NCBI GenBank assembly: GCA_002269645.1
Contig: NIVC01000801.1
Span: forward strand, 59,484-123,483
Reading direction: 5' to 3'
Source: Macrostomum lignano
Taxonomy: Eukaryota
Length of the DNA: 64,000 nt
In this document: piece after piece, positions 32,411 through 60,640 of the stretch
Position numbering within the stretch: position 1 is the stretch's first letter
How the letters are laid out: the number at the start of each line of letters is the position of its first letter
Made by a program: the position numbers and the translations under genes
The notes under the pieces: model-generated
Database searches by the model: none
Seen by the model: only the letters and a program-made list of their open reading frames with translations
Told to the model about the DNA's origin: nothing

Positions 32411-34007
32411 GTAGTAGTAAGTAGTAGTAGTAGTAAGAGAATTTGGCTCAGGCAATTAGCCTGTTTGGCCAATATATTATAGAGCTATGTATTTGGAAAA
32501 ATTTTCGAAATAGAAGTTTATAAAGACGATTTGACGACGATTTGCCGAATTATTGTAAAAGATAAAGTATTTGAAAGCGCGCCAGAATTTTTACGGTATT
32601 TTTGGACGAAAAGTGACGACTAACAACTAACAACGAGTATAAAATATTAATACAAAAATGAGTACAAATTACGAGATATAGCTTTAATTGCGAGATTACT
32701 TTGGTAAGCGAGTTTGTAAAAAAAAAAGATGTAGTATTTTTGAAAGCGCGTGATATTTCAAAGCGTGAAAAACGAACATGAACAATACTTCGAAAGAACT
32801 TTACGTTTAACGAATAACGATGATTTAAATATAGGGAATTAAAAAAGACAGTAAATGAATAAACAACTGAAAAGCGGATTTGTTAAACTGCTAATGTATC
32901 TGATTCAGTTTGTTTAACTGTTTTAGCTATTCATGACTTCATATATTTTAGCTACACCAGTGAGTTCTTTTCTGACTCTTTTTTCGTTTGTAGCATATCC
33001 TATCTTGTGTATTTGATTGCTATTTAAGAGGTATTGACAGAAGTATTTCTTCCTGATCTCTTCAGTTTGTGGACATTCGGTCAAGTAGTGTAGAATGTCA
33101 GAACCATTTCGCACTCCACACATTTTACATGGTTCTTGAGAAAAAAAGTTGGGTGTAATCTCGCATTTCAGTTTTAGGAGGGTTGTTAAGAATTTTTTGT
33201 TTCTAAATGTACATGGAAAGAAATCTGAAAGGTCGGGCCTGCAGATTTTTTTGTAGAGATAGGCGTTTTTGTAGAGTTTAATATGTTGCTGATTCTCTAG
33301 CTTTTGGCTAAGTTCTCTTTCTCTGTGTATCTTGAGGTGCTTTTTCACTAGGTATTTCTCGTTATTAAAGCTTTGGGAAATTTTATCTTCAGTTAGTGCT
33401 TTTAGGTCTATACTTTCTAGTTTCTTTAGTACATTCATTTTCCATGGATTTTTTTGGCCGGTGTTTGAGTAGAAAATTTCTAGAGTCGTTTGGCAGAGTT
33501 TTTTGTGTCTAATCTTCAGCCAGTAGATGAGGTAGGATTTAGCGATTCGTTGAGAGATTGGAGTAAGCTCAAGTTCTGATGATATCACACTGTAGCTAGC
33601 AAATTTTGGTAGATTGAGGAGATATTTGTAGAATTTCAGCTGAATATTATCAATAGCTTTTGTATCAGACATGGTAGCCAGAGGGCCCCAGAGCTCACAA
33701 CCGTAAGTGATAACGGGGGTAACAAGCGCGTCGAATAGTCTGCGAATGAGTGTGATGTCTAGGGACGTATTCTTTACCCTATGGAGTAGGGAAAACATAG
33801 CTGTATATCCCTGCTTAGTTTGGTGTTCAATACATTTTTTAAAGCTGTTTTTTGGTTCAAAAATAATTCCCAGGTATTTAAATTCATTTACTTCCTCTAT
33901 TTCTTGGTTGTCGTAGTATATTTTTGTAGCAATGCTTTCTGTGTCGTTTTTTTGTCTGGTATTGCCCTGCATAAACTTTGTTTTGCTTGCATTTACTTTC
34001 AAGTAAT
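32411..34007 (-). mobile_element. LINE (non-LTR retrotransposon), 3' half: RT C-terminus, CCHC finger, 3' UTR and possible (TAC)n tail
   Basis: ORF 32923-34035: LKVNASKTKFM, FKYLGI, LFDALVTPVITYGCELWG, CKMC...HYLTEC. GTA-repeat at 32411-32436 is the putative tail. Confidence 0.85.
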
Positions 34008-35063
34008 TGATGTGTTCCTTATTACCAGTCCTCAACTGTAATCAAGGAACAATCACTTCTAGCTCTGTAGCTAGGCAACCCAGTAATCAAATGAAGGTAT
34101 TCAATTACCTTGATCCGGATTCCTTGATATCGTTCTTGAGTCGTTCGGTTCTGTAGATCTCTTAGACTTTTAGACGTCTTCAGATGTCGATCGGGTCCGA
34201 GTTTCCTTTTCTCTCCTTTCGAAGTATTTCCGGCCGGTATCTGTAGTGCGGACCAATGGGAAGCTTCCAAATTAACAATGGGTACCCTGCGCCAAATCTG
34301 CGGTTTAATATAAGCCTACTCCTTCTAGCAGTGCCTCTATGCACTCTAGGTATAGCTCCGGAAACCACTGATAGTCTTCTAAGACCTATCAGGGGCAGTC
34401 CTTCTGGAGACTGCAACCAGTGGAGTCTAAACAGACTCAAGAGTCTCAACAGACTCAAATAAACTCAAGTCTCAATAGACTTGAGCGAGACGTCTCAACC
34501 AACGGGCGCAAATGAGTAAGGCTTACCGCAAGAACTCGTCCACGACGCGAGTTTCTTCAGGAAGGCTTCACTAGAGCTTCCTCTTCGGAGCTTCTCTCTC
34601 TTGGAGATTTCTTGGCTCCGGGTCCGTTCCGGACCACTTGTATTTATAGGCAAATGGACCCCCATGAGGTCACGTGAGTCCAACTCTTCAGCTGTCAAAA
34701 AGGTCACGGTTTGGTTGCTGTCAAACTTGGCAGGGTAGAAAGTTATTCCATTGGTTCAGTGTAAAAGCGCGTGATTGGTCATCGCATTCGAGTTATTTTT
34801 AGTTACATTTGATTGGGTCACGTGCGTACAGTTGAATGATGCATCTTTCCTGGGGTTTGCGTTTGACAAGTACAGGTTACACGTGATTGGGTGATTTCTA
34901 AATTTAACATGCACAAGGTCTCTCTCTTCCTATTGGTTAGTCAGAATAAACTTATAATTCAAAGCATACCTTTATTCATGCTCTTCAACTTACTACTGAA
35001 TAAAATGTATGAGTAGTACATTAACACTTTTATGTCTTCTTACGGGAGGTAGAACACTCTACA
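34008..35063 (-). repeat. 3' LTR (1056 bp)
   Basis: Direct repeat of 43784-44839 (offset 9776); only one mismatch noticed by eye (C34783 vs T44559). Confidence 0.97.
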
Positions 35064-35281
35064 AAATCTCCCATGTTTACAAAAAACTCGTCCCGAGTTT
35101 TAAATAGAGGATTGAAACGCGTAAAAAGTTCGAGCATGTCTTTATAAAAATCTTTTGTCACAAGTGTTACAGGTATTTTGTAATGGGTAGTTAAGAGCGT
35201 TAGTTATAAAAGTTATTTAAAGGTAAGTATACGCATGCAAATAAAATGTTTTTGGTTACAGTATTGACATGTGCGCCAAGA

Positions 35282-35494
35282 CTAACAATAGGCGCACTGC
35301 CGCAAACTTCTTCTACCTATCGGGCAATTCTGCCAGAGCTGAATATAATGTGAGTCGCCTAAATATTGTCCGCATATGCGATGTCTGTTTTCACAAATAA
35401 TTGGTGGCTTGACAGCCAAGTCATCAGTTAAACATATTGGGCATTCGTAGAGTTGCTGTAATTGGGGCGCCTGTTTGGACAGTGCGTTGCCCAT
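35282..35494 (-). CDS. Small accessory ORF (70 aa): N-myristoylation motif plus degenerate SINA-type RING finger
   Basis: MGNALS (MGxxxS), Kozak ACAATGG; CPIC-x12-C-x3-H-x2-C-x2-[Y]-x12-CPI[G]R. Confidence 0.6.
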   Translation of the reverse strand: MGNALSKQAPQLQQLYECPICLTDDLAVKPPIICENRHRICGQYLGDSHYIQLWQNCPIGRRSLRQCAYC

Positions 35495-35605: not shown

Positions 35606-38600
35606 TTAACGAGGTCGCAGATTATAGCCGTGCGGCTGGCTCTCGTTCGTTGTTTGAGTCTCCTCGTGTTTCGTTGCGATGTGGCGGTTTGTCGAACGCG
35701 TGCGGTCGGCATTGTCAAGTGACGGTAGAAATGTCGCCGTGTCAGTGTTGATCTTCTTTAGTCGATGAATGTGCACGTAGAATTGGTGCTGATGAGGATC
35801 TTGCACATTGGCCAGGCGTGCCGTTGTCGGTGACGTTAGTTGGACCACTCGATATGGTCCTTTGTACTTCTGTGCGTGTTTGTGCGTCTGTTGCGGCGGA
35901 TAGTGCAGGTAGACGATGTCGCCGGCTGTCAGAGTTGTCGATCTCGTGTCGGTGCCGGTGGTTAGAGCCACCTGATTGTCGATGTTGTGCTTGGCTACTT
36001 TCCATGCGAGGTGTAGTTGCGTGACGAACTTTTGAATGGACGTCGGGACTTCCACATATTGCGATGGTAGTAGTTGCTGTGCCAATAGGTTTGGCGGCTG
36101 GAAGTCTCGCCCAAACATTAGAAAGAATGGCGTATTATCCGTTGATCGATGAATAGCGCTGTTGTAGGCCATTGTTACTGCTTGCAGATAGATGATCCAG
36201 TCGTCTGGTTGTTGATGCGCGAAGTGTGTAATCATCTCGTGTAGGTTGCGGTGAAACCTTTCAACCATGTTCGCCTTCGGATTGTAGGTCGATGTGTAGA
36301 TCTGCGTGATGTTGAGGATCTTCACCACTTGCTGAAAGAGTTGAGACGTAAACTGCGATCCATTGTCCGATGTGAGGTTCTTTGTCGTACCGTACTTGCA
36401 GATGATGTCGTTGAAGAAACCCATTGCCACTGTCTGAGCTGTGATGTCCGGTATTGGTATGGCAATAGCAAACTTTGAGAAAATGTCCAAGGCGGTTAGG
36501 ATGTAGGTGTAGGCTATGCCATGGAGACAGCTCGGTGGCAGCGGTCCGGTGATGTCGATGCTGAGACAGTCCATAGTTGTTGACTTCGGTATCGATTGTA
36601 GCTGTGGTTTCTGTCGTCGCCCTGTCTTTGATGCTGCGCATGAGTGGCAATTGTTGCAATACTGTTTGATGTCGCCATGCATGCTTGGCCAAAAGTAGTA
36701 TTGCTCCACTCTTGCAATGGTTTTGGCTGCCGACAGGTGTCCAGCGAGTGGGTTGTCGTGCAGCTCGTTGAGAATGGCCTGCCTAAACGAATATGGCATG
36801 TAGATTCTAGGTTTGTTGTCACTCATCCAGTAGAGTCGTGACTTGTTGATTGTTAAATGTTGTCGCTGCTTGCGCAGGAATTTTCGTTCCACGGGGCTGA
36901 GCTTGATGTCCTTGTCGTTGTTTTTAACTGCTATGTAGAAGTTGTCGTGTTCAGTCTCATCCACCAATTCCTTGATGTTAGGGATTGGATGAATGGCGTT
37001 GACTTCGTAGGCTCTTGACAGAGCGTCCGCAGCCTTGTTAGTAATTCCTGGTTTGTAGACCAGCTTGTAGTTGTAGTCCTGGATCTTGAGCGTCATCCTG
37101 ATGAGTCGGTTATTTGTTTGTCCTTTTGTAGTTACGACGTAAGTCAGCGGTGCGTGATCTGTGCGTACTATCGTCGGTATTGGAGAACCATAGATGTAGT
37201 AATGGAACTGTCGTAGGGCGAACAAGACTCCTAGTAGCTCGCGTTCCGTAGCTGACCACTTTGTTTCATTTGGCTTGAGTGCTCGACTGACGTAGGCGAT
37301 AGGTCGCTCCTTCTTGTCCTCGGTTTCCTGTAGTAGGACGGCTCCGAGTCCCGTTCCTGAGGCGTCTGTCTCGATGATGAAGGGTTTGTCGAAGTCCGGA
37401 TGCTGTAGTAGTGCGTCTGATGTCAGTTGTCGTTTGATTTCGTCGAAACTCTCTTGCTGCTTTTGCGTCCAGTTCTCTCGTTTCCACTTGTCGAATTTGA
37501 GCAGGTCGTACAGCGGTTTTGCTGTCTTCGCGAAGTTCGGTAAAAACTTTCGGAAGTATTGCGCTAGTCCAAGAAACGATTGGACCTTCGTAATGCTAGT
37601 TGGCGTAGGAAACTTTTTTACTTTCTCCACATTGTCTGGGTCCGGTGAGATTCCTTTGGCTGTCACTTGGTGTCCTAGGTAACGTACGTTGTCTCGGAAG
37701 AATTTGCATTTCGTCGGTTGTAGCTTAAGACCTTGGCGTTGAATGAGCGCTAGGGCCTTCTCCGTAGCTTCATAGAGTCGTTGGAAGTCTTCTCCGTAGG
37801 CCAAGATGTCGTCGACATAGTGCAGCAGGTTTGTGCATCCTGCAAGCATGTATGCCGTTAGTCGGCTCATTGTTGCTGGGCTGTTGCTGAGTCCCATTGG
37901 CGATCGGTTGTACTCGTAGACTTGTCCATTGTAGGTCTTAAAAGCCGTGTACTGTCGTGATTCTTTCTCGATTTCAATTTGCCAAAATCCATGACGTAGG
38001 TCGAACACCGTGAACAATTTTGCTGTGTTGAGCTTTGCTAGTAGCTCGGAGATCTTTGGTAGGCTTTGCTGATCCGTCGGTATGTACTTGTTTAGCAGTC
38101 TGAAGTCGCATACAAGTCGTCTTTCGTTAGTCTCCTTCTTTTGTACCAGTAGGCACGGTGAGGAATAGGCTGAAATTGCTTTGCTGATGATGCCGTGCTT
38201 TAGCATTTTATCAATAATTTCGTCAAAGTGTTGTTGCAGATGCTTGGCAATCGGGTACGGCTTGCACTGAATTGGTTCAGTGTGCGGTAGAAGCTTGATT
38301 TCTTGTTTAATGTCTTTAGCGCGTCCGATGTCGTAATCATGATGGCAGAAGGCTTCGTTGTACTTCCACAACAGTTGTCGAACTTTCTTCTTTTGCTGTT
38401 CCGTGATCGGGCTGTCGTCCAAGTTGATTTTCTTTTGAAATTCTTCTTCTGTTAGTCGTGGAGTCGTGTGCTCAATCAGCATAACTGATGCTTGAGTGTT
38501 GAGATGACCGATGCACATTCCTTGTCGTAGATGAACCATTTCCGCGTTCGGGTTGAAGATTTGTACTGGCAGCTGCTTATCTTTCGCCACCAGCACTAGT

Positions 38601-40231
38601 GCCGTAGGCATCATGATTTGATGTTTTGCCGTGACTCTCCTGTGTGGATCAAATATCATTGCTTCATCTGCCGCGCTGGTCGCTTTCGCTCTGACCCAGC
38701 ATGCACTTTCAGGCTGGATGATGACATCTTGCTGTAAGGTAACTTTTGGTAGTACTCGAATCTGGTTAATCAGTGGTTGCTCCACCGTGTCAATCCTAAA
38801 CGTTTGCTTGTTGAAGTCGAAGGTCAATGGTAGTCGAAGCTGCTTGAACGTGTCGATTCCAACAATGACGTCTTGGTTTGGTAGTTTGTCGATGATGTAC
38901 GTCGGGACCGTCAGATGTTTATTAGCAATTTTCAAGTCGATATCTGCTTTTCCTAGGATATTGAGTGAATGTCCTCCTGCTCCTGCAACTGCGATTGCTG
39001 CTGGTCGTACCGCGAGTCGTAGCTTGTTGCATAATTGTTGCGAGATGACGGTGATAGAGCTGCCTGAATCCAGTAGTGCTCGACATGGCAAGTTGTTGAC
39101 AATGACCTGAGCCATTGCCTTGCCAATCTCAGCGTGTAGCGTGCAGACGTAGTTTTCTGGCCATTTCGGCTCGTGTTGATCCTGCTGATAGCCAGGTGGC
39201 TGCATTCTCGGTGCTGTTGGTGTTGTCGGAATCGATGGATACATTCGCGTTGATGGTGTCGGCTGTCCTTGAGTTTCTTGACGTGCATCCTCTGTCAATT
39301 CCAAGTTGTTGTCTTCTTCCCTTGGTATCTTCTGCATGATGGCGTTCACTGTTCGTTTCGCTGTGGGACAAGTGTTGCTGAAGCATCGTACTATCGACGA
39401 GATGATAAAGATTGCCGTAACTACCCATACAACACAGGCACTGTAGAAGATGAAGCCTTGATATAGGCTGCCTCTTCCGTTAAGCAGCTCTAAAAAGCTG
39501 TTGGTCCAAAACGATTGGATGGCGTTGTCCATAGACACTAGGACCGGGAAACTGCCTGTGCCTGTTCCTTTATTCTTTCGTGTGAAGAGTTGACGAATCA
39601 TCTTCCGTTGAGTGATGAACGCTTGCAAGAAGTCGTTGATGGTCCATCCGGGTGTTATCTCATCGAGTTGGATATCGGCGAATGGCGTGTACTTCGTTCT
39701 GTTAAACCGTATCTTCAGATCGTCCATATCGTACGTTTCATCGACAATCACTTCTGGTTCCGTGATATTCGCTGTCGTTCCTGTCGTTTTAATGACGTGT
39801 AGTGCATCGTCCAGTTGATAGTAGTTTGCTGCAGTGGTGCAGGGTCTTGGTATGGCTGTGCCAACGATGATGTTGTGTACCGTGTCCAAGAATCCTTGTA
39901 TTCTTTTGCCTTCGTAGAATGCTTCAATTCTCGGCTTGTCGTAGCAAGTTGTTGAAGTGTTCGACGGCAAGATGTTGAAGTGCTGTATCGGCGTGCACTT
40001 GTATATCAGGAGATGTCCATATATCGGAATTGCCAGAACCTCTCTCATTCCCGTGATCTTGCGAAATGTCATCGTAGGGTTGACATAGTAGTTCTGTCTT
40101 GCGTAGTTCAAGTTGATTGCGTGCATTTTGCAAGTTAGCTGAACCAGTGACCGATGTAAGTGGTTAAGCTGGTTATGCAGGTTGTGATCCAGCGCCGTGA
40201 TCTTTGCTGACAGCAGTCGGTTTGACACCAA
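35606..40231 (-). CDS. pol: Env C-terminal half (ectodomain, TM, tail) fused in frame to Pol (aspartic protease, RT, RNase H, integrase)
   Basis: TM ~39457-39389; LLDSGS at 39070; YSSPCLLV, RLVCDFR, YVDD at 37819-37808; TDASGTGLGAVL; HDNPLAGH..C..C; DITGP, SDNGSQF, VERFH; GPY; terminal YNLRPR. The frame is open upstream to ~40309. Confidence 0.95.
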   Translation of the reverse strand: MVSNRLLSAKITALDHNLHNQLNHLHRSLVQLTCKMHAINLNYARQNYYVNPTMTFRKITGMREVLAIPIYGHLLIYKCTPIQHFNILPSNTSTTCYDKPRIEAFYEGKRIQGFLDTVHNIIVGTAIPRPCTTAANYYQLDDALHVIKTTGTTANITEPEVIVDETYDMDDLKIRFNRTKYTPFADIQLDEITPGWTINDFLQAFITQRKMIRQLFTRKNKGTGTGSFPVLVSMDNAIQSFWTNSFLELLNGRGSLYQGFIFYSACVVWVVTAIFIISSIVRCFSNTCPTAKRTVNAIMQKIPREEDNNLELTEDARQETQGQPTPSTRMYPSIPTTPTAPRMQPPGYQQDQHEPKWPENYVCTLHAEIGKAMAQVIVNNLPCRALLDSGSSITVISQQLCNKLRLAVRPAAIAVAGAGGHSLNILGKADIDLKIANKHLTVPTYIIDKLPNQDVIVGIDTFKQLRLPLTFDFNKQTFRIDTVEQPLINQIRVLPKVTLQQDVIIQPESACWVRAKATSAADEAMIFDPHRRVTAKHQIMMPTALVLVAKDKQLPVQIFNPNAEMVHLRQGMCIGHLNTQASVMLIEHTTPRLTEEEFQKKINLDDSPITEQQKKKVRQLLWKYNEAFCHHDYDIGRAKDIKQEIKLLPHTEPIQCKPYPIAKHLQQHFDEIIDKMLKHGIISKAISAYSSPCLLVQKKETNERRLVCDFRLLNKYIPTDQQSLPKISELLAKLNTAKLFTVFDLRHGFWQIEIEKESRQYTAFKTYNGQVYEYNRSPMGLSNSPATMSRLTAYMLAGCTNLLHYVDDILAYGEDFQRLYEATEKALALIQRQGLKLQPTKCKFFRDNVRYLGHQVTAKGISPDPDNVEKVKKFPTPTSITKVQSFLGLAQYFRKFLPNFAKTAKPLYDLLKFDKWKRENWTQKQQESFDEIKRQLTSDALLQHPDFDKPFIIETDASGTGLGAVLLQETEDKKERPIAYVSRALKPNETKWSATERELLGVLFALRQFHYYIYGSPIPTIVRTDHAPLTYVVTTKGQTNNRLIRMTLKIQDYNYKLVYKPGITNKAADALSRAYEVNAIHPIPNIKELVDETEHDNFYIAVKNNDKDIKLSPVERKFLRKQRQHLTINKSRLYWMSDNKPRIYMPYSFRQAILNELHDNPLAGHLSAAKTIARVEQYYFWPSMHGDIKQYCNNCHSCAASKTGRRQKPQLQSIPKSTTMDCLSIDITGPLPPSCLHGIAYTYILTALDIFSKFAIAIPIPDITAQTVAMGFFNDIICKYGTTKNLTSDNGSQFTSQLFQQVVKILNITQIYTSTYNPKANMVERFHRNLHEMITHFAHQQPDDWIIYLQAVTMAYNSAIHRSTDNTPFFLMFGRDFQPPNLLAQQLLPSQYVEVPTSIQKFVTQLHLAWKVAKHNIDNQVALTTGTDTRSTTLTAGDIVYLHYPPQQTHKHAQKYKGPYRVVQLTSPTTARLANVQDPHQHQFYVHIHRLKKINTDTATFLPSLDNADRTRSTNRHIATKHEETQTTNESQPHGYNLRPR

Positions 40232-40284
40232 TCGTGGACGTACTATGTCGCGTCGTTGTCTCTCTTGTTGCTGATATGTTCCGT

Positions 40285-41772
40285 TTATGATTGCCGGAAG
40301 GTTTGTTTGTCACCATCCTTCACGTAGACTGGTATTTCTTGTTCTGAAATGAATAGCGTCTTGTCCGTATCTTTGCATTTGAGTTCCTGTTCGACCGGCT
40401 TCTTTTGAAACGTCAAGGCCAAGTCTCCTGCTTTTGCCAAAAATGTATTCGACAGTAGTCCTCCTTCCACTGTGTGATACTTTTGAAGCTTGCAGTCAAT
40501 TTCCGGCTCTACTTCCCATGCGAAGTAATATTGTCGTGCCTTGTACGGTTCCTCATAGTGTGAGTGTGCTCTGTGCTCAATCTGCCATCGATAGTTTTGA
40601 TGATATGTTGGACTTAGTGGTAGACTGTGTAATTCTTCCTTCCGTAGAATTGGTGTTGGACACCATCCTTCACTGTATCGACATTCGCTTAGTTGCAGCT
40701 GTAGCGATTCCATTTTCTCGTATGGATTGTAGTAGAATGGAATATTTCTGATCAAGTAGCTGTTGCGTGCCACATATTCTTTCCATTTTCCGAAGAAGTG
40801 AATGTATCGACCGTTGGCTGAATTCTTTGTTCTGAACAGCTGTGCGTTGCCGACCTTCTCATCTGGTTCCAGTTCACCATCCTTTGAAAACAGTGTTTGG
40901 TTCCATTGTAGGCATTCCGCGTGCGACACATGTAGCTCATGTTGTTTAAATCGGATCCGATTCCATTGTCCGCGCCAAACTTTTTCCACTAGGTGCTTGT
41001 CTCTGAAGCACACTATTCCGTGTTGTCGATGCTTTTTGATGTTAGCCTTGTAGAGATCGAGTGTAATCTTCTTTGGCTTCGTCTGGTTTGTCTTGAAGTA
41101 GCTGCATTTGATGTCGGTTGGTATCTTGTAGATCATCGGTTGGATATGCGCATCCGTTGGACAGATCATTGGTTTTTCCGTTGCCGTTGCTTTGGCGACT
41201 ACTGCTATCAGTAGTATCATGATGATCCAGAATAGCCAGTTTTTCCACTTCTTGGACCTTGCCGTTGTCTTTGCTGGCATTGGCTGCGATCGCCATTCGT
41301 TGTCTTCCATGTCCGCATCGTATTCTTTCGGTTGCTCTATTGGCTGTTTCAGGCGGAAGGGTTCTGATTCGCTTTGCTTTTTGGTTATTTCAGTATCTTC
41401 GTCTGCCGCTTCTTCTGATGTTTCAGTTGTTTCACTCCATTGCGTTTGGTATTTTCTCTCTGTCTTGTAGTCGACTGTTTGAATGTAGGCTTCACCATTT
41501 CGTTTGTATCGGATCTCGTAGCATTCGTCGCTGTCGGAACTCGGCTTTTCTTTCCTCTGTTCTTTTTCCATGTCTTCATCTTTCCATTGTATTTCGTAGC
41601 CTTGATCGCTGTCGGAACTTAGATTTTCCGCTCTCAGTTCTTCCTGCATTCCTTCTTCGGTTCGGTATCCGTTCGTGTCATCGCGCACCTCGCAGTCGTG
41701 ATCGTTGCCGTAACTCATACATTCTTCTTCTTTTATTTCTTTGTCTTTCATGCTTATTTTGTCGTCATCCAC
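40285..41772 (-). CDS. Acidic spacer, internal signal sequence and N-terminal half of a class III-like viral fusion glycoprotein
   Basis: Hydrophobic WLFWIIMILLIAVV (~41238-41191), then a Cys-containing ectodomain (PMICPT, GIVC, VSHAEC, ECRYSEGWC, DCKL, ISEQ) with NQT sequons. Confidence 0.7.
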   Translation of the reverse strand: MDDDKISMKDKEIKEEECMSYGNDHDCEVRDDTNGYRTEEGMQEELRAENLSSDSDQGYEIQWKDEDMEKEQRKEKPSSDSDECYEIRYKRNGEAYIQTVDYKTERKYQTQWSETTETSEEAADEDTEITKKQSESEPFRLKQPIEQPKEYDADMEDNEWRSQPMPAKTTARSKKWKNWLFWIIMILLIAVVAKATATEKPMICPTDAHIQPMIYKIPTDIKCSYFKTNQTKPKKITLDLYKANIKKHRQHGIVCFRDKHLVEKVWRGQWNRIRFKQHELHVSHAECLQWNQTLFSKDGELEPDEKVGNAQLFRTKNSANGRYIHFFGKWKEYVARNSYLIRNIPFYYNPYEKMESLQLQLSECRYSEGWCPTPILRKEELHSLPLSPTYHQNYRWQIEHRAHSHYEEPYKARQYYFAWEVEPEIDCKLQKYHTVEGGLLSNTFLAKAGDLALTFQKKPVEQELKCKDTDKTLFISEQEIPVYVKDGDKQTFRQS

Positions 41773-41977
41773 TGTTGTCGATTCATAGTTGTTCTCTTCG
41801 TCGGTCCCCCTCTTTTCTTCGTTGCCGGTATCGCTCTCCGCCTCCTCCCTTTTTTGTGATTTACTTTCTTCCTGTTTTCTCTGCTGTCTCCGGTGGTCTC
41901 TTTTAATTCGATCATTTCGGTTTCATTTGCCTCTTCTGTCTTGTCAGTGTTGTCCTCGTGCGTTGTCTTCTTTTCGA

Positions 41978-43066
41978 TCAAGCTGATGTCATTTCCAAGT
42001 CGTCAATTGTGAACACTTGCTGTTCTTGCTGCTCATTTTCCGGTGTGTACGTGATGGCATTCGCGTATCGTGGCATTGCTTGCGTTGGCTGTCTTTGTGT
42101 GTACCTGGCGTTGCGTGGCCTGTAGCTATTATTTCTGAAGCGGCCGTCATTTCCGAAGCGGCCATCATTTCCGGAGCGGTCATTATTTCCGAAGCGTCTA
42201 TCATTTCCGAAGCGTCTCATGCCTTGTTGTTGGCGACTTTGATACTGCTGCCATGGTTTCTGCGGCTTTTGATTGTTAAATGTCTGTCGCGGCTTGTCGT
42301 ATCTTGTTGACCAATGAGGACAATTAATCTGATAATGTCCTTCTTGTCCGCAGTAGTAACATCTGGCGGAGGCTTGTTCATTTCGTCTTTTTTGTTCGGC
42401 GATAGCAGCTGTCTGGTGCTGCATTAACTTGTTTAATTGCTGCGTCAGTTTCTGCACTTCATTGTTGCCTGTCGTCATTAATGGGGCACTGGCTTCCCAT
42501 TGCATTCCGCACCGCAAAAGGTCTTCTTCGGTTTCGATATTTTCACGCAAAAGTCTATCCCGAAGTGACGGCTGTGCGTTGTTTATTACGTGCAGGATGA
42601 GGTTTTGTTCGCGATCCATCAATCGTTGTCTTTCTCTGGCGGCCAATTCTGCCGCTCCCAGTGGCGGTTGGTCCGCAGCTTGCAGCGGTGGCTGATGCAG
42701 TGCTTTAATTATCTGGCGGATATCGTCCACAAAGGCGAGGAAGGATTCCGTTGCTTGCATCCTTCTGTTATGTAACTTGTGCAGCAGCACTGATCTGTTT
42801 GTGCCGCAACGGTTGAAATGCGCGCGCAGTTGAATGATTAGTGCTGGATAATTTTGCTGTGTTGCCGCGTCCAGCTTGCCGTAAATTTCTCGCGCAGTAC
42901 CTTGGAGAAGAGGTGGCAGCAGCTGTGCCTTCTCTGGATTTTGTAGGTTGTATTCCCTACATACCAGGTCGAAATGGTCGACAAATGTGTTAAAATCTTT
43001 CTCCATCGCGAAGGTATCGACCGTTTCTTTGATGTCTCTGTGTACCGTTGGATTGCGCCGCGCCAT
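41978..43066 (-). CDS. gag: Gag (capsid-like region plus CCHC nucleocapsid knuckle)
   Basis: DFNTFVDHFDLVC...LLQGTAREIY; CYYCGQEGHYQINC; RFGND repeats. Confidence 0.9.
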   Translation of the reverse strand: MARRNPTVHRDIKETVDTFAMEKDFNTFVDHFDLVCREYNLQNPEKAQLLPPLLQGTAREIYGKLDAATQQNYPALIIQLRAHFNRCGTNRSVLLHKLHNRRMQATESFLAFVDDIRQIIKALHQPPLQAADQPPLGAAELAARERQRLMDREQNLILHVINNAQPSLRDRLLRENIETEEDLLRCGMQWEASAPLMTTGNNEVQKLTQQLNKLMQHQTAAIAEQKRRNEQASARCYYCGQEGHYQINCPHWSTRYDKPRQTFNNQKPQKPWQQYQSRQQQGMRRFGNDRRFGNNDRSGNDGRFGNDGRFRNNSYRPRNARYTQRQPTQAMPRYANAITYTPENEQQEQQVFTIDDLEMTSA

Positions 43067-43761: not shown

Positions 43762-43781
43762 CCGAGAGGGCGAGATCACCA
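43762..43781 (-). other. Putative primer-binding site
   Basis: TGGTGATCTCGCCCTCTCGG begins 2 nt inside the 5' LTR boundary; the cognate tRNA was not identified. Confidence 0.55.
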
Positions 43782-43783
43782 AT

Positions 43784-44839
43784 TGATGTGTTCCTTATTA
43801 CCAGTCCTCAACTGTAATCAAGGAACAATCACTTCTAGCTCTGTAGCTAGGCAACCCAGTAATCAAATGAAGGTATTCAATTACCTTGATCCGGATTCCT
43901 TGATATCGTTCTTGAGTCGTTCGGTTCTGTAGATCTCTTAGACTTTTAGACGTCTTCAGATGTCGATCGGGTCCGAGTTTCCTTTTCTCTCCTTTCGAAG
44001 TATTTCCGGCCGGTATCTGTAGTGCGGACCAATGGGAAGCTTCCAAATTAACAATGGGTACCCTGCGCCAAATCTGCGGTTTAATATAAGCCTACTCCTT
44101 CTAGCAGTGCCTCTATGCACTCTAGGTATAGCTCCGGAAACCACTGATAGTCTTCTAAGACCTATCAGGGGCAGTCCTTCTGGAGACTGCAACCAGTGGA
44201 GTCTAAACAGACTCAAGAGTCTCAACAGACTCAAATAAACTCAAGTCTCAATAGACTTGAGCGAGACGTCTCAACCAACGGGCGCAAATGAGTAAGGCTT
44301 ACCGCAAGAACTCGTCCACGACGCGAGTTTCTTCAGGAAGGCTTCACTAGAGCTTCCTCTTCGGAGCTTCTCTCTCTTGGAGATTTCTTGGCTCCGGGTC
44401 CGTTCCGGACCACTTGTATTTATAGGCAAATGGACCCCCATGAGGTCACGTGAGTCCAACTCTTCAGCTGTCAAAAAGGTCACGGTTTGGTTGCTGTCAA
44501 ACTTGGCAGGGTAGAAAGTTATTCCATTGGTTCAGTGTAAAAGCGCGTGATTGGTCATTGCATTCGAGTTATTTTTAGTTACATTTGATTGGGTCACGTG
44601 CGTACAGTTGAATGATGCATCTTTCCTGGGGTTTGCGTTTGACAAGTACAGGTTACACGTGATTGGGTGATTTCTAAATTTAACATGCACAAGGTCTCTC
44701 TCTTCCTATTGGTTAGTCAGAATAAACTTATAATTCAAAGCATACCTTTATTCATGCTCTTCAACTTACTACTGAATAAAATGTATGAGTAGTACATTAA
44801 CACTTTTATGTCTTCTTACGGGAGGTAGAACACTCTACA
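43784..44839 (-). repeat. 5' LTR (1056 bp)
   Basis: TGTAGAG...ACATCA on the - strand, flanked by TSD. Confidence 0.97.
44417..44712 (-). promoter_or_regulatory. LTR U3 promoter: TATA box with upstream CCAAT boxes and CACGTG E-boxes
   Basis: TATAAATA at 44424-44417; CCAAT (- strand) at 44526, 44550, 44588, 44662, 44708; CACGTG at 44447, 44595, 44656. Confidence 0.55.
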
Positions 44840-45795
44840 TAATTTTGCTTGCAGTAATTTTCCATAGTCGTAAATGTGTCTTGAAGTTCGTCTTTGTTTT
44901 TAGCTAGAATGGCTTGATCGTCTGCAAAGAGTAGGATGAGTGGGAAAGCAGATCTCGTAAGAGCGCCTAGTGCTAGAGAGTTCAAGATATTCAACAATGT
45001 CGTCAATATATAGTGCAAAAAAGAAGGTAGAGAGGGTTGCCTTGAAGAACACCTTTAGATATTGGGATTGGCTGGGTTTCATCATCATCATCATCTTTTT
45101 TTAGAATGAAGCATGCAGGCATTTTTATGCATGTTCTTGATAAGTTCCGTCATTATATTTGACCTTTAATACCCTGGTTATCCGTTTTGTGCCAAAGGGT
45201 CGGTTGATTAAGCTATCGAAGGCTTTTTCATAGTCAACAAATCCAATAAAGAGTTCTTCTTTGTTGTAGATGGATTGGTTAATAATGTTGTAAAGATTAA
45301 AACATTGGTCAATTGTACTGTGATTGGGCTTGAAACCGTATTGGTATTTTGATATAAGATTGTTTGCGTATGCTAGGTTTTCGAGTCTGGATTTAATAAT
45401 TTGGCAAAAGAGCTTGCCAAGAATTGGTTGAATGCAGATTCCTCTGTAATTGTTGGGGTCGGCACTGCTGCCTTTGTTGTTATAAATCGGATGAAGTTTA
45501 TTTGTTATCCAACTAGTTGGGAAGGTTCCTTGTTTGAGTGCTTCGTTGAAAAGTGAGCATAGGAGGTCAGCAAGTTCGTTCTCGAGGTATTTGAGTGTTT
45601 CTACATATACTTTATCGTGCCCAGGTGCTTTGTCAGTTTTGAGCTTTTTAATATGTTTTATAACTTCTTCTTTGGTGAATGGGGCATTGAAAACCTCTAA
45701 ATCAGCCAGAATAGGGTTGTCAAGGTGAAGATTGTATGATAGTCTAATGCTGCTGTCTTGTTCAGTTACAAGATTTTGAAAGTGTATGACGAACG
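44840..45795 (-). mobile_element. LINE 5' half (RT N-terminal domains, 5'-truncated, frameshifted)
   Basis: - strand reads KAPGHDK, NYRGICI..ILGKLF, QYGFKP, FVDYEKAFDS, GVLQG, LYIDDI, LFADD. It rejoins the 3' half in frame (MENYCKQNYLKVN) once the LTR element and one TSD copy are removed. Confidence 0.9.
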
Positions 45796-46705
45796 TAGCA
45801 AGGAGTTATTTTGGCAATTGTAAAATTTACGTACTGGCAAGCTATGTTTTTAGCTATAAGTTATTGAATTTTTTAAACAGTTTTTGAGTAGAATTAGACA
45901 ACGATAACGAAATTTACAATAGATAAAAAAGTACCTTACTTGTTTTAAAAATTGTTATAACAGCTGATTGTTTTCATAGAACATTCAAAATTTTAATTTC
46001 GAAGGTTTTTATTATGACGGTGCTTTTTTATGAGTAAGTGACTGTGAGATTGAGGCAACTGATTTTTCAATACTTAGGACATTCAAATATTCTGTAATCA
46101 TATTCATAGATGATATAGATAAGATGTTTAGAAATAACAAAAATCCTGCTTTCATAGCTCGGAACGCTTAGTTTACTATTTAAAGCCGAAATATTCTAGC
46201 GCCCAGGCCTACAGAAAGGAAATCACGCGCGTGATGAATCATAAATAGCTTTAAAAATTTGTGTTTGCAGTTAACTAAAAAGTTTTTATAATTTGCAAAA
46301 ACTGATGTTTCCCTTATTTTCAAAATATATTGAATTGATATAATGATATTCGAGTTCAAGTACTTTCGCTTGCTTCTACTAGTACTATATAATATAATCT
46401 ACCTAGTGCTGAAAAATTGCATGCAGGACTTCAGTCAGTTATATATGAATGATTATAATGTCATAGCTACTTTTCTTTATTATAAAATACAAAATAGGCC
46501 TATAGTATGGCCTTGCTAGCATTGGCTGTTTTATAGAATAGCCTAGTGGCTATAGTGTTACCCATACCATAGACATAGTCAGGAAGATAGCATTTTTCAC
46601 GGAAAATTCTGGCACAAAAGGAGGTTAGACGTGTGCCACATTGGCACTAGCGCATTTTGCTACAAGTTTGCAAGGGAGAAAAATCTAGCATAATATGGGT
46701 ATAGT

Positions 46706-51579: not shown

Positions 51580-60640
<9,061 letters not shown>

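Follow-up and report, generated by a model that had tools for sequence, protein, structure and literature searches.

One continuous gag-env-pro-pol open reading frame (ORF), accompanied by extra ORFs, was reportedly found by Sacco et al. in 2022 in a nematode clade. Chary and Hayashi (eLife, PMC13524379, in the parts available to us) describe elements of Nematoda, Bryozoa and Platyhelminthes that carry an HSV/gB-type ENV (HSV, herpes simplex virus) in GAG-ENV-POL order. Their supplement lists nine flatworm elements, one of which, Platyhelminthes_Rhabditophora_Mlig_errantivirus_2, comes from Macrostomum lignano and is entered with 864-bp long terminal repeats (LTRs), 16 copies and ENV_HSV type (PMC13524379). 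Here we analyzed a 64,000-nt stretch of M. lignano DNA (contig NIVC01000801.1; hereafter, the window), which carries on its minus strand a 10.8-kb Ty3/gypsy element inserted in a long interspersed nuclear element (LINE). We conclude that this element is very probably a young, frame-broken copy of an active, multi-copy Macrostomum Ty3/gypsy family that shows the published GAG-ENV-POL layout and has a class III Env resembling gB, whose products would work by the mechanism proposed below.

The gene order and the fusogen class are already known, and the window holds a defective copy of a catalogued kind in a catalogued host; the novelty of the gag-env-pol layout, implied by a preliminary description of this DNA, did not survive comparison with the survey (PMC13524379). 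The window family shares with the published gB-type elements the gene order, a class III Env between two hydrophobic segments and a Ty3/gypsy Pol (PMC13524379). Mlig_errantivirus_2, compared by its table row only, resembles the window copy in host species, ENV_HSV type, an identical 12-mer as tRNA primer-binding site (PBS) and its multi-copy state, but differs in the length of the LTRs (864 vs 1,056 bp) and of the internal stretch (about 8,864 vs 8,719 nt). The published internal length fits a subfamily (copies L027-L029 and L031; 8,860-8,884 nt) with about 90% identity to the window copy, which is therefore best read as belonging to a sister subfamily. Membership in the Mlig_errantivirus_2 family itself would call for more than 98% identity to the published element over the ORFs. 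The cysteine-bridge table of the survey has no Macrostomum row among its flatworm rows, and the available part of a Macrostomum LTR survey (PMC12801592) holds no envelope annotation for these elements. Drosophila errantiviruses (gypsy, ZAM) are likewise Ty3/gypsy elements with an envelope gene, but their env is the third ORF, after pol, and is of the F-type (PMC13524379). Atlas virus of hookworm and related nematode Belpaoviridae resemble the window family in that a single polyprotein (2,828 amino acids, aa) comprises Gag, Pol and Env, whereas Atlas virus is a belpaovirus with Env last and a class II, phlebovirus-like fusogen (PMC9094657, in the part available to us).

Architecture of the element

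The element has the LTRs with TG...CA ends, the PBS, the polypurine tract, the target duplication and the protease-reverse transcriptase (RT)-RNase H-integrase order of Ty3/gypsy elements (Metaviridae). Its LTRs of 1,056 bp (5', 43784..44839; 3', 34008..35063; element features are on the minus strand) differ by one mismatch. The PBS (43770..43781) lies 2 nt past the 5' LTR; its 11-nt core was found in 21 of 22 other copies of the element, which we read at 7-10 kb after picking them from hit lists out of at least 40 (two are cut by contig ends), and the remaining copy, L022, is cut before the PBS. A short polypurine-tract-like stretch (35064..35073) precedes the 3' LTR, and a 4-bp target-site duplication, TAAT, lies at 34004..34007 and again at 44840-44843. 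Taken with the nearly identical LTRs, these marks indicate that the insertion is recent.

Between the LTRs, the gag capsid region (41978..43066, first Met at 43066), with a CCHC knuckle at 42361-42320, is followed by an acidic low-complexity linker (41239..42319) that runs from the zinc knuckle to the Env signal. The linker contains two frame breaks in the window; in unbroken copies it measures 307-366 aa, of which Asp and Glu make up 23-25%. Env consists of an internal signal or signal-anchor (41181..41238), the N- and C-terminal halves of the ectodomain (40285..41180 and 39458..40309) and a transmembrane anchor (39401..39457). Behind it come an aspartic protease with a DSG motif (38840..39109; Pfam PF13650/PF13975), the RT core with RNase H (37073..38143; YVDD at 37819) and an integrase with HHCC, core and GPY-type C-terminus that extends to the pol stop (35606..36796). 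Pfam placed the zinc knuckle in the first of three long frames and the protease, RT, RNase H and integrase, in that order, in the third. Among solved structures, the RT-RNase H part matched yeast Ty3 RT best (E 5e-69), ahead of pararetroviral and retroviral RTs, in a set from which Bel/Pao RTs may be missing. The domain order and the likeness to Ty3 bear out the gypsy assignment of the preliminary description; its bounds, 35606..43066, caught the gag start but left out the LTRs, the PBS and a small 3' ORF (35494-35282).

Env is predicted to be a gB-like class III fusogen

The ectodomain of the window copy, about 570 aa long and with a pattern of cysteines, lies between the signal, which may be cleaved (hydropathy 2.29), and the transmembrane anchor (hydropathy 2.38). 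The features listed in the preliminary description were present where it had placed them: the signal-like segment (41238-41188), N-glycan sequons (NQT at 41088 and 40902, NGT at 40285, NTS at 39961, NIT at 39769 and NRT at 39703), a furin-type site, RQRR, at 40261-40250, the helix segment LHNQ...LTC at 40180-40130, an NPT motif at 40081, the transmembrane segment (39457-39401) and the protease motif LLDSG at 39076. Pfam PF24664, the Monjiviricetes fusion glycoprotein, matched the third frame (E 5e-4) and the C-terminal half of Env (E 3.7e-5), in both cases below the curated cut-off.

The ectodomain of an unbroken sister copy, L024, served as query against 1.8 billion representatives and gave 50 matches. 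The only solved structures matched by a profile of 29 sequences, composed of this query and 28 of the shorter matches, were those of herpesvirus gB (22 sequences; best E 1.3e-14). In the AlphaFold model of the L024 ectodomain as a monomer (predicted local distance difference test, pLDDT, 77; predicted TM-score, pTM, 0.50), the beta-hairpins are long and one helix, H321-366, spans 46 residues. On this model, the N-terminal half would hold the fusion and PH-like domains, and the C-terminal half the furin-type site, the central helix and a crown domain. Two aromatic segments, at 40977-40963 and 40803-40783 of the window, are candidate fusion loops, assigned from the hairpin tips of the model. In a Foldseek search of the PDB, all rows listed were gB (best E 2.7e-20, TM-score 0.37-0.46), and the top viral models were nyami-, rhabdo-like and chu-like G proteins and gB. 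A wide structural aligner also put HSV gB first (Z 12.8, 403 residues aligned, root-mean-square deviation 9.5), followed by the G proteins of Chandipura (vesiculovirus) and Bourbon (thogotovirus). In an Atlas search of Env, the leads all scored under 0.9.

Profile, Foldseek and second aligner thus favor gB, in line with the class III assignment of the preliminary description (gB or chuvirus type), and we firmly regard Env as a predicted class III, gB-like fusogen. It shares the class III fold across the ectodomain with herpesvirus gB and with nyamivirus, chuvirus and rhabdo-like G proteins at about 10-13% identity; these likenesses do not single out a donor lineage. The env segment between gag and pol and the gB-type fold of the L024 monomer model are the marks of the published HSV/gB-type GAG-ENV-POL group.

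Among the 50 database relatives of Env, a CCHC knuckle lay upstream in the same chain in 21, a protease motif lay downstream in 13, and 10 had both. Judged from these predicted chains, the Gag-Env-protease single-chain design is wider than the window family. One relative, P0009, has an N-terminal NADAR domain (PF08719, E 8.5e-16) in the same predicted chain. P0005 and cluster 3 represent a second, distant Macrostomum family with 30% identity in env; its predicted chain of 2,852 aa has the same order of knuckle, Env, transmembrane segment and protease, with PSAP and YPTL ahead of the protease.

Sister copies encode one continuous polyprotein

In the source genome, the Env region has at least 40 matches at 85-100% identity, window included (40 of 90 candidates were scored), and searches with gag and pol gave similar copy lists. 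All 22 fetched copies have the gag-env-pol order and the Env signal, NPT and transmembrane motifs, and in 21 of them the env position holds a furin-type site. The idea that hits found with pol only were env-less derivatives was rejected, since the 12 fetched to check all carry env motifs. The first protein search returned a single match, a UniRef record named Macrostomum lignano polyprotein (93% identical), and a more distant env relative bears the name of this species too; such named database proteins support a flatworm as the invertebrate host that the preliminary description had supposed.

The window has three long minus-strand frames, 43186-41978 (gag), 41922-40285 and 40309-35606. Compared with an unbroken sister copy, it has three frameshifting gaps, near 41,990, 41,860 and 40,300. 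The gag frame stops at 41978, just past the first gap, and the last one falls in the middle of the ectodomain, so that env is split over the second and third frames. In the window copy as assembled, translation that begins at gag cannot reach Env or Pol. The third frame, of 1,567 codons, joins the C-terminal half of env with the protease and the remaining Pol; the preliminary description does not mention that the env of the window is split. In four of the 22 sister copies, a single ORF of 2,480-2,538 codons encodes Gag, the acidic linker, Env, protease, RT, RNase H and integrase. The uninterrupted gag, env and pol by which GAG-ENV-POL errantiviruses are recognized (PMC13524379) are found in these four copies but not in the window; the family therefore qualifies, and the window copy is a defective member.

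Ratios of non-synonymous to synonymous substitution rates (dN/dS; Nei-Gojobori with Jukes-Cantor) for the six pairwise comparisons among the four unbroken copies were 0.06-0.13 in the N-terminal half of env and 0.04-0.10 in its C-terminal half with the transmembrane anchor. Values were 0.00-0.03 in gag, 0.01-0.03 in RT-RNase H and 0.38-0.51 in the linker. The low env values indicate that Env is under purifying selection and is kept as a protein.

The subfamilies are recombinant mosaics, also within env (copies L011-L032). L032, for instance, is 97-98% like the window in the gag and signal blocks and 80-86% in the C-terminal half of env; L032 has this half in common with the L021 group. Assembled contigs from four of 24 listed sequencing runs, three guessed to be RNA and one of unknown kind, covered 30, 30, 29 and 30 of 30 bins of the element. 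In two of the four, a 1.7-kb contig spans gag, linker and signal; such contigs are not informative on transcription, strand or level. None of the 15 joints listed, of 29, was a minus-strand GT..AG joint, which neither shows nor excludes splicing. Depth dips at 39,300-40,285 in two runs; subfamilies with an env C-terminal half 80-86% like the window, under the cut of 88%, account for it. At 40,411, a loose end was traced to an unrelated locus without env likeness.

Late-domain-like motifs and a 3' RING ORF

The stretch of about 100 aa between the transmembrane anchor and the protease, predicted to be cytosolic, contains YPSI, PTAP and PPGY within 18 residues (39241-39188). Retroviral late domains of the YPxI, PTAP and PPxY types bind ALIX, TSG101 and NEDD4-type ligases, respectively. 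In the 22 copies and the window, YPx[LI] and PPxY were present in 23/23 sequences and PTAP in 22/23, with variable x positions, and the cluster holds the sole PTAP and PPxY of the four unbroken polyproteins. When the window tail was shuffled 20,000 times, all three motif types co-occurred twice. The corresponding 110-aa stretch of 12 database relatives contained five motifs, distributed over four of the relatives, where shuffling gave a mean of 0.74; this number was reached by 7 of 5,000 shuffles.

Downstream of pol, the window has a 70-aa ORF (35282..35494), which represents a 222-aa RING protein in truncated and degenerate form. The 222-aa form, carried by three of the 22 copies (L022, L026 and L032; full-length ORFs at L032:190-855 (-) and L026:41-706 (-)), starts with MGxxxS and has RING-type cysteine patterns. 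Pfam zf-RING_2 matched two stretches (E 1.7e-4, below the cut-off), and the nearest Atlas clusters were viral RING proteins (score up to 0.91). Two versions of the ORF are 73% identical, with a dN/dS of about 0.12 at a dS of 1.5, near saturation. The source genome has 151 matches, many of them open at full length and including forms of 41-44% identity, and some copies are adjoined directly beyond by a second paralogue (about 30% identical). In the window's group, the ORF is shortened and has lost zinc ligands, so that recent copying does not depend on it. A database search restricted to similar length gave no homologue, and the structural model (pLDDT 45) was too poor for a fold search. From its start and cysteine patterns, the protein may be myristoylated and may act as a ubiquitin ligase.

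The late-motif cluster and the RING ORF point to ESCRT-type (endosomal sorting complexes required for transport) budding of enveloped particles, which, by analogy with retroviruses, we consider rather probable. A term search of the eLife main text (PMC13524379) gave no occurrence of late-domain, ESCRT, budding, RING or myristoyl, nor of polyprotein, frameshift or fused. Rotifer LTR elements have extra 3' ORFs, and the available part of that report does not mention RING or late domains (PMC5408684). Our literature search did not find the late motifs and the RING ORF; subscription papers, figures and preprint supplements lay outside its scope and could describe them.

Proposed mechanism and alternatives

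We propose that one genomic RNA would be translated into a single polyprotein, as the single ORF in the DNA suggests. Gag and the acidic linker would stay in the cytosol, while the internal signal would thread Env into the endoplasmic reticulum; the transmembrane anchor would halt transfer and return the tail and Pol to the cytosol, a topology modeled on the two hydrophobic segments. Host signal peptidase and furin would then cut Env, and the element protease would release Gag and Pol. A single polyprotein implies that Gag, Env and Pol are made at 1:1:1, with Gag and Pol at first tethered to the membrane. The YPxI/PTAP/PPxY cluster of the tail could recruit ALIX, TSG101 and NEDD4-type ligases for budding, as in retroviruses, and trimeric Env could fuse the particle with another cell, probably from soma to germline as in Drosophila gypsy. 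In this scheme, based on sequence, the family may be infectious.

We tentatively extend this to a functioning "complex" enveloped retroelement, with a membrane-spanning Gag-Env-Pol polyprotein, an Env tail bearing three ESCRT late-domain types and an accessory myristoylated double-RING protein, a combination that is possible rather than probable. If it exists, the double-RING protein, sometimes accompanied by tandem paralogues, would be a likely ubiquitin ligase directed against membrane or defence proteins of the host. A gypsy element would then possess a retrovirus-grade budding module and an accessory gene, and would offer a tractable model of a gB-type Env working without the herpes partner proteins. 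The remaining value of the locus is mechanistic: the survey calls the way in which gB-type elements leave and enter cells unknown (PMC13524379). The single-ORF design, the selected Env, the clustered budding motifs and the RING gene yield specific predictions that can be tested in a host with RNA interference and transgenesis, where transgenic tests of LTR promoters have been done (PMC12801592).

Several points weigh against the reading of the family as active and enveloped. Herpes gB requires partner glycoproteins; the global TM-scores of the Env model are modest; and the database polyproteins of the env relatives are gene predictions. The late motifs were tested after they had been noticed, in copies that are close kin, and 8 of the 12 relatives lack them, as does P0003, a near-identical chimeric record excluded from the count. 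The window copy and 18 of the 22 fetched copies are frame-broken or cut. Finally, the entry mechanism of gB-type elements is called unknown in the survey (PMC13524379).

The broken frames could have two other sources. Frameshifting is common in Ty3/gypsy elements, and the three overlapping ORFs of the window might accordingly reflect programmed frameshifts between gag, env and pol. We hold this very improbable: the single ORF occurs in four copies from different subfamilies, which largely refutes it; one window break lies within the ectodomain; and the breaks of the 17 broken copies are scattered rather than at the window's three sites (an approximate comparison, made with different references). 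It is considerably more credible, though somewhat short of an even chance, that the breaks in the window and most sister copies are assembly errors and that many more copies are intact. Single-base losses at scattered codons make up 73 of the 90 frameshifting gaps in the 17 broken copies and the window, with 91-99.9% identity between these copies and an unbroken one, and the LTRs of the window copy are nearly identical; against this, homopolymer enrichment of the gaps is weak (26% vs 16% at homopolymers of at least 3 bases; n = 74), and one of the breaks in the window is a longer gap. As the source of the breaks, assembly error is plausible, though unproven, and the question touches only the window copy, not the family design.

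Other alternatives concern Env itself. The family might spread within cells only and keep Env for another job, such as membrane anchoring of assembly or fusion between neighboring cells; purifying selection shows that Env is useful but not in what way, and transmission by env is, according to the available part of the survey, unproven outside Drosophila (PMC13524379). This is unlikely in our view, as the full gB-like ectodomain is retained with its furin site, aromatic hairpin tips and transmembrane anchor, and the budding-type cluster lies directly behind it. Env as a one-off insertion or a non-fusogenic protein deserves practically no credence. Although the PF24664 matches stay below the curated cut-off and the Atlas scores below 0.9, env is under selection and is present in every fetched copy, which disposes of the one-off insertion that the preliminary description had named as grounds for abandoning its reading, and profile and two structural aligners point to gB. 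We accordingly retain the enveloped GAG-ENV-POL element as the best explanation.

Insertion site and surroundings

The insertion splits a host LINE-type RT sequence (44844..45805, minus strand; Pfam RVT_1). In translations of the flanks, the RT frame resumes at 34003-32923, and the halves of this AT-rich, LINE-type element join across the target duplication. The LTR has no heat-shock elements, and the 64-kb window has no tRNA genes. Elsewhere in the genome, contigs C1130, C2121, C2447 and C87 each hold several copies of the element or of the 3' ORF, possibly as nested arrays or silencing clusters. Positions 1-22000 and 53000-60000 of the window hold dense arrays of mini- and microsatellites with periods of about 8-26 nt.

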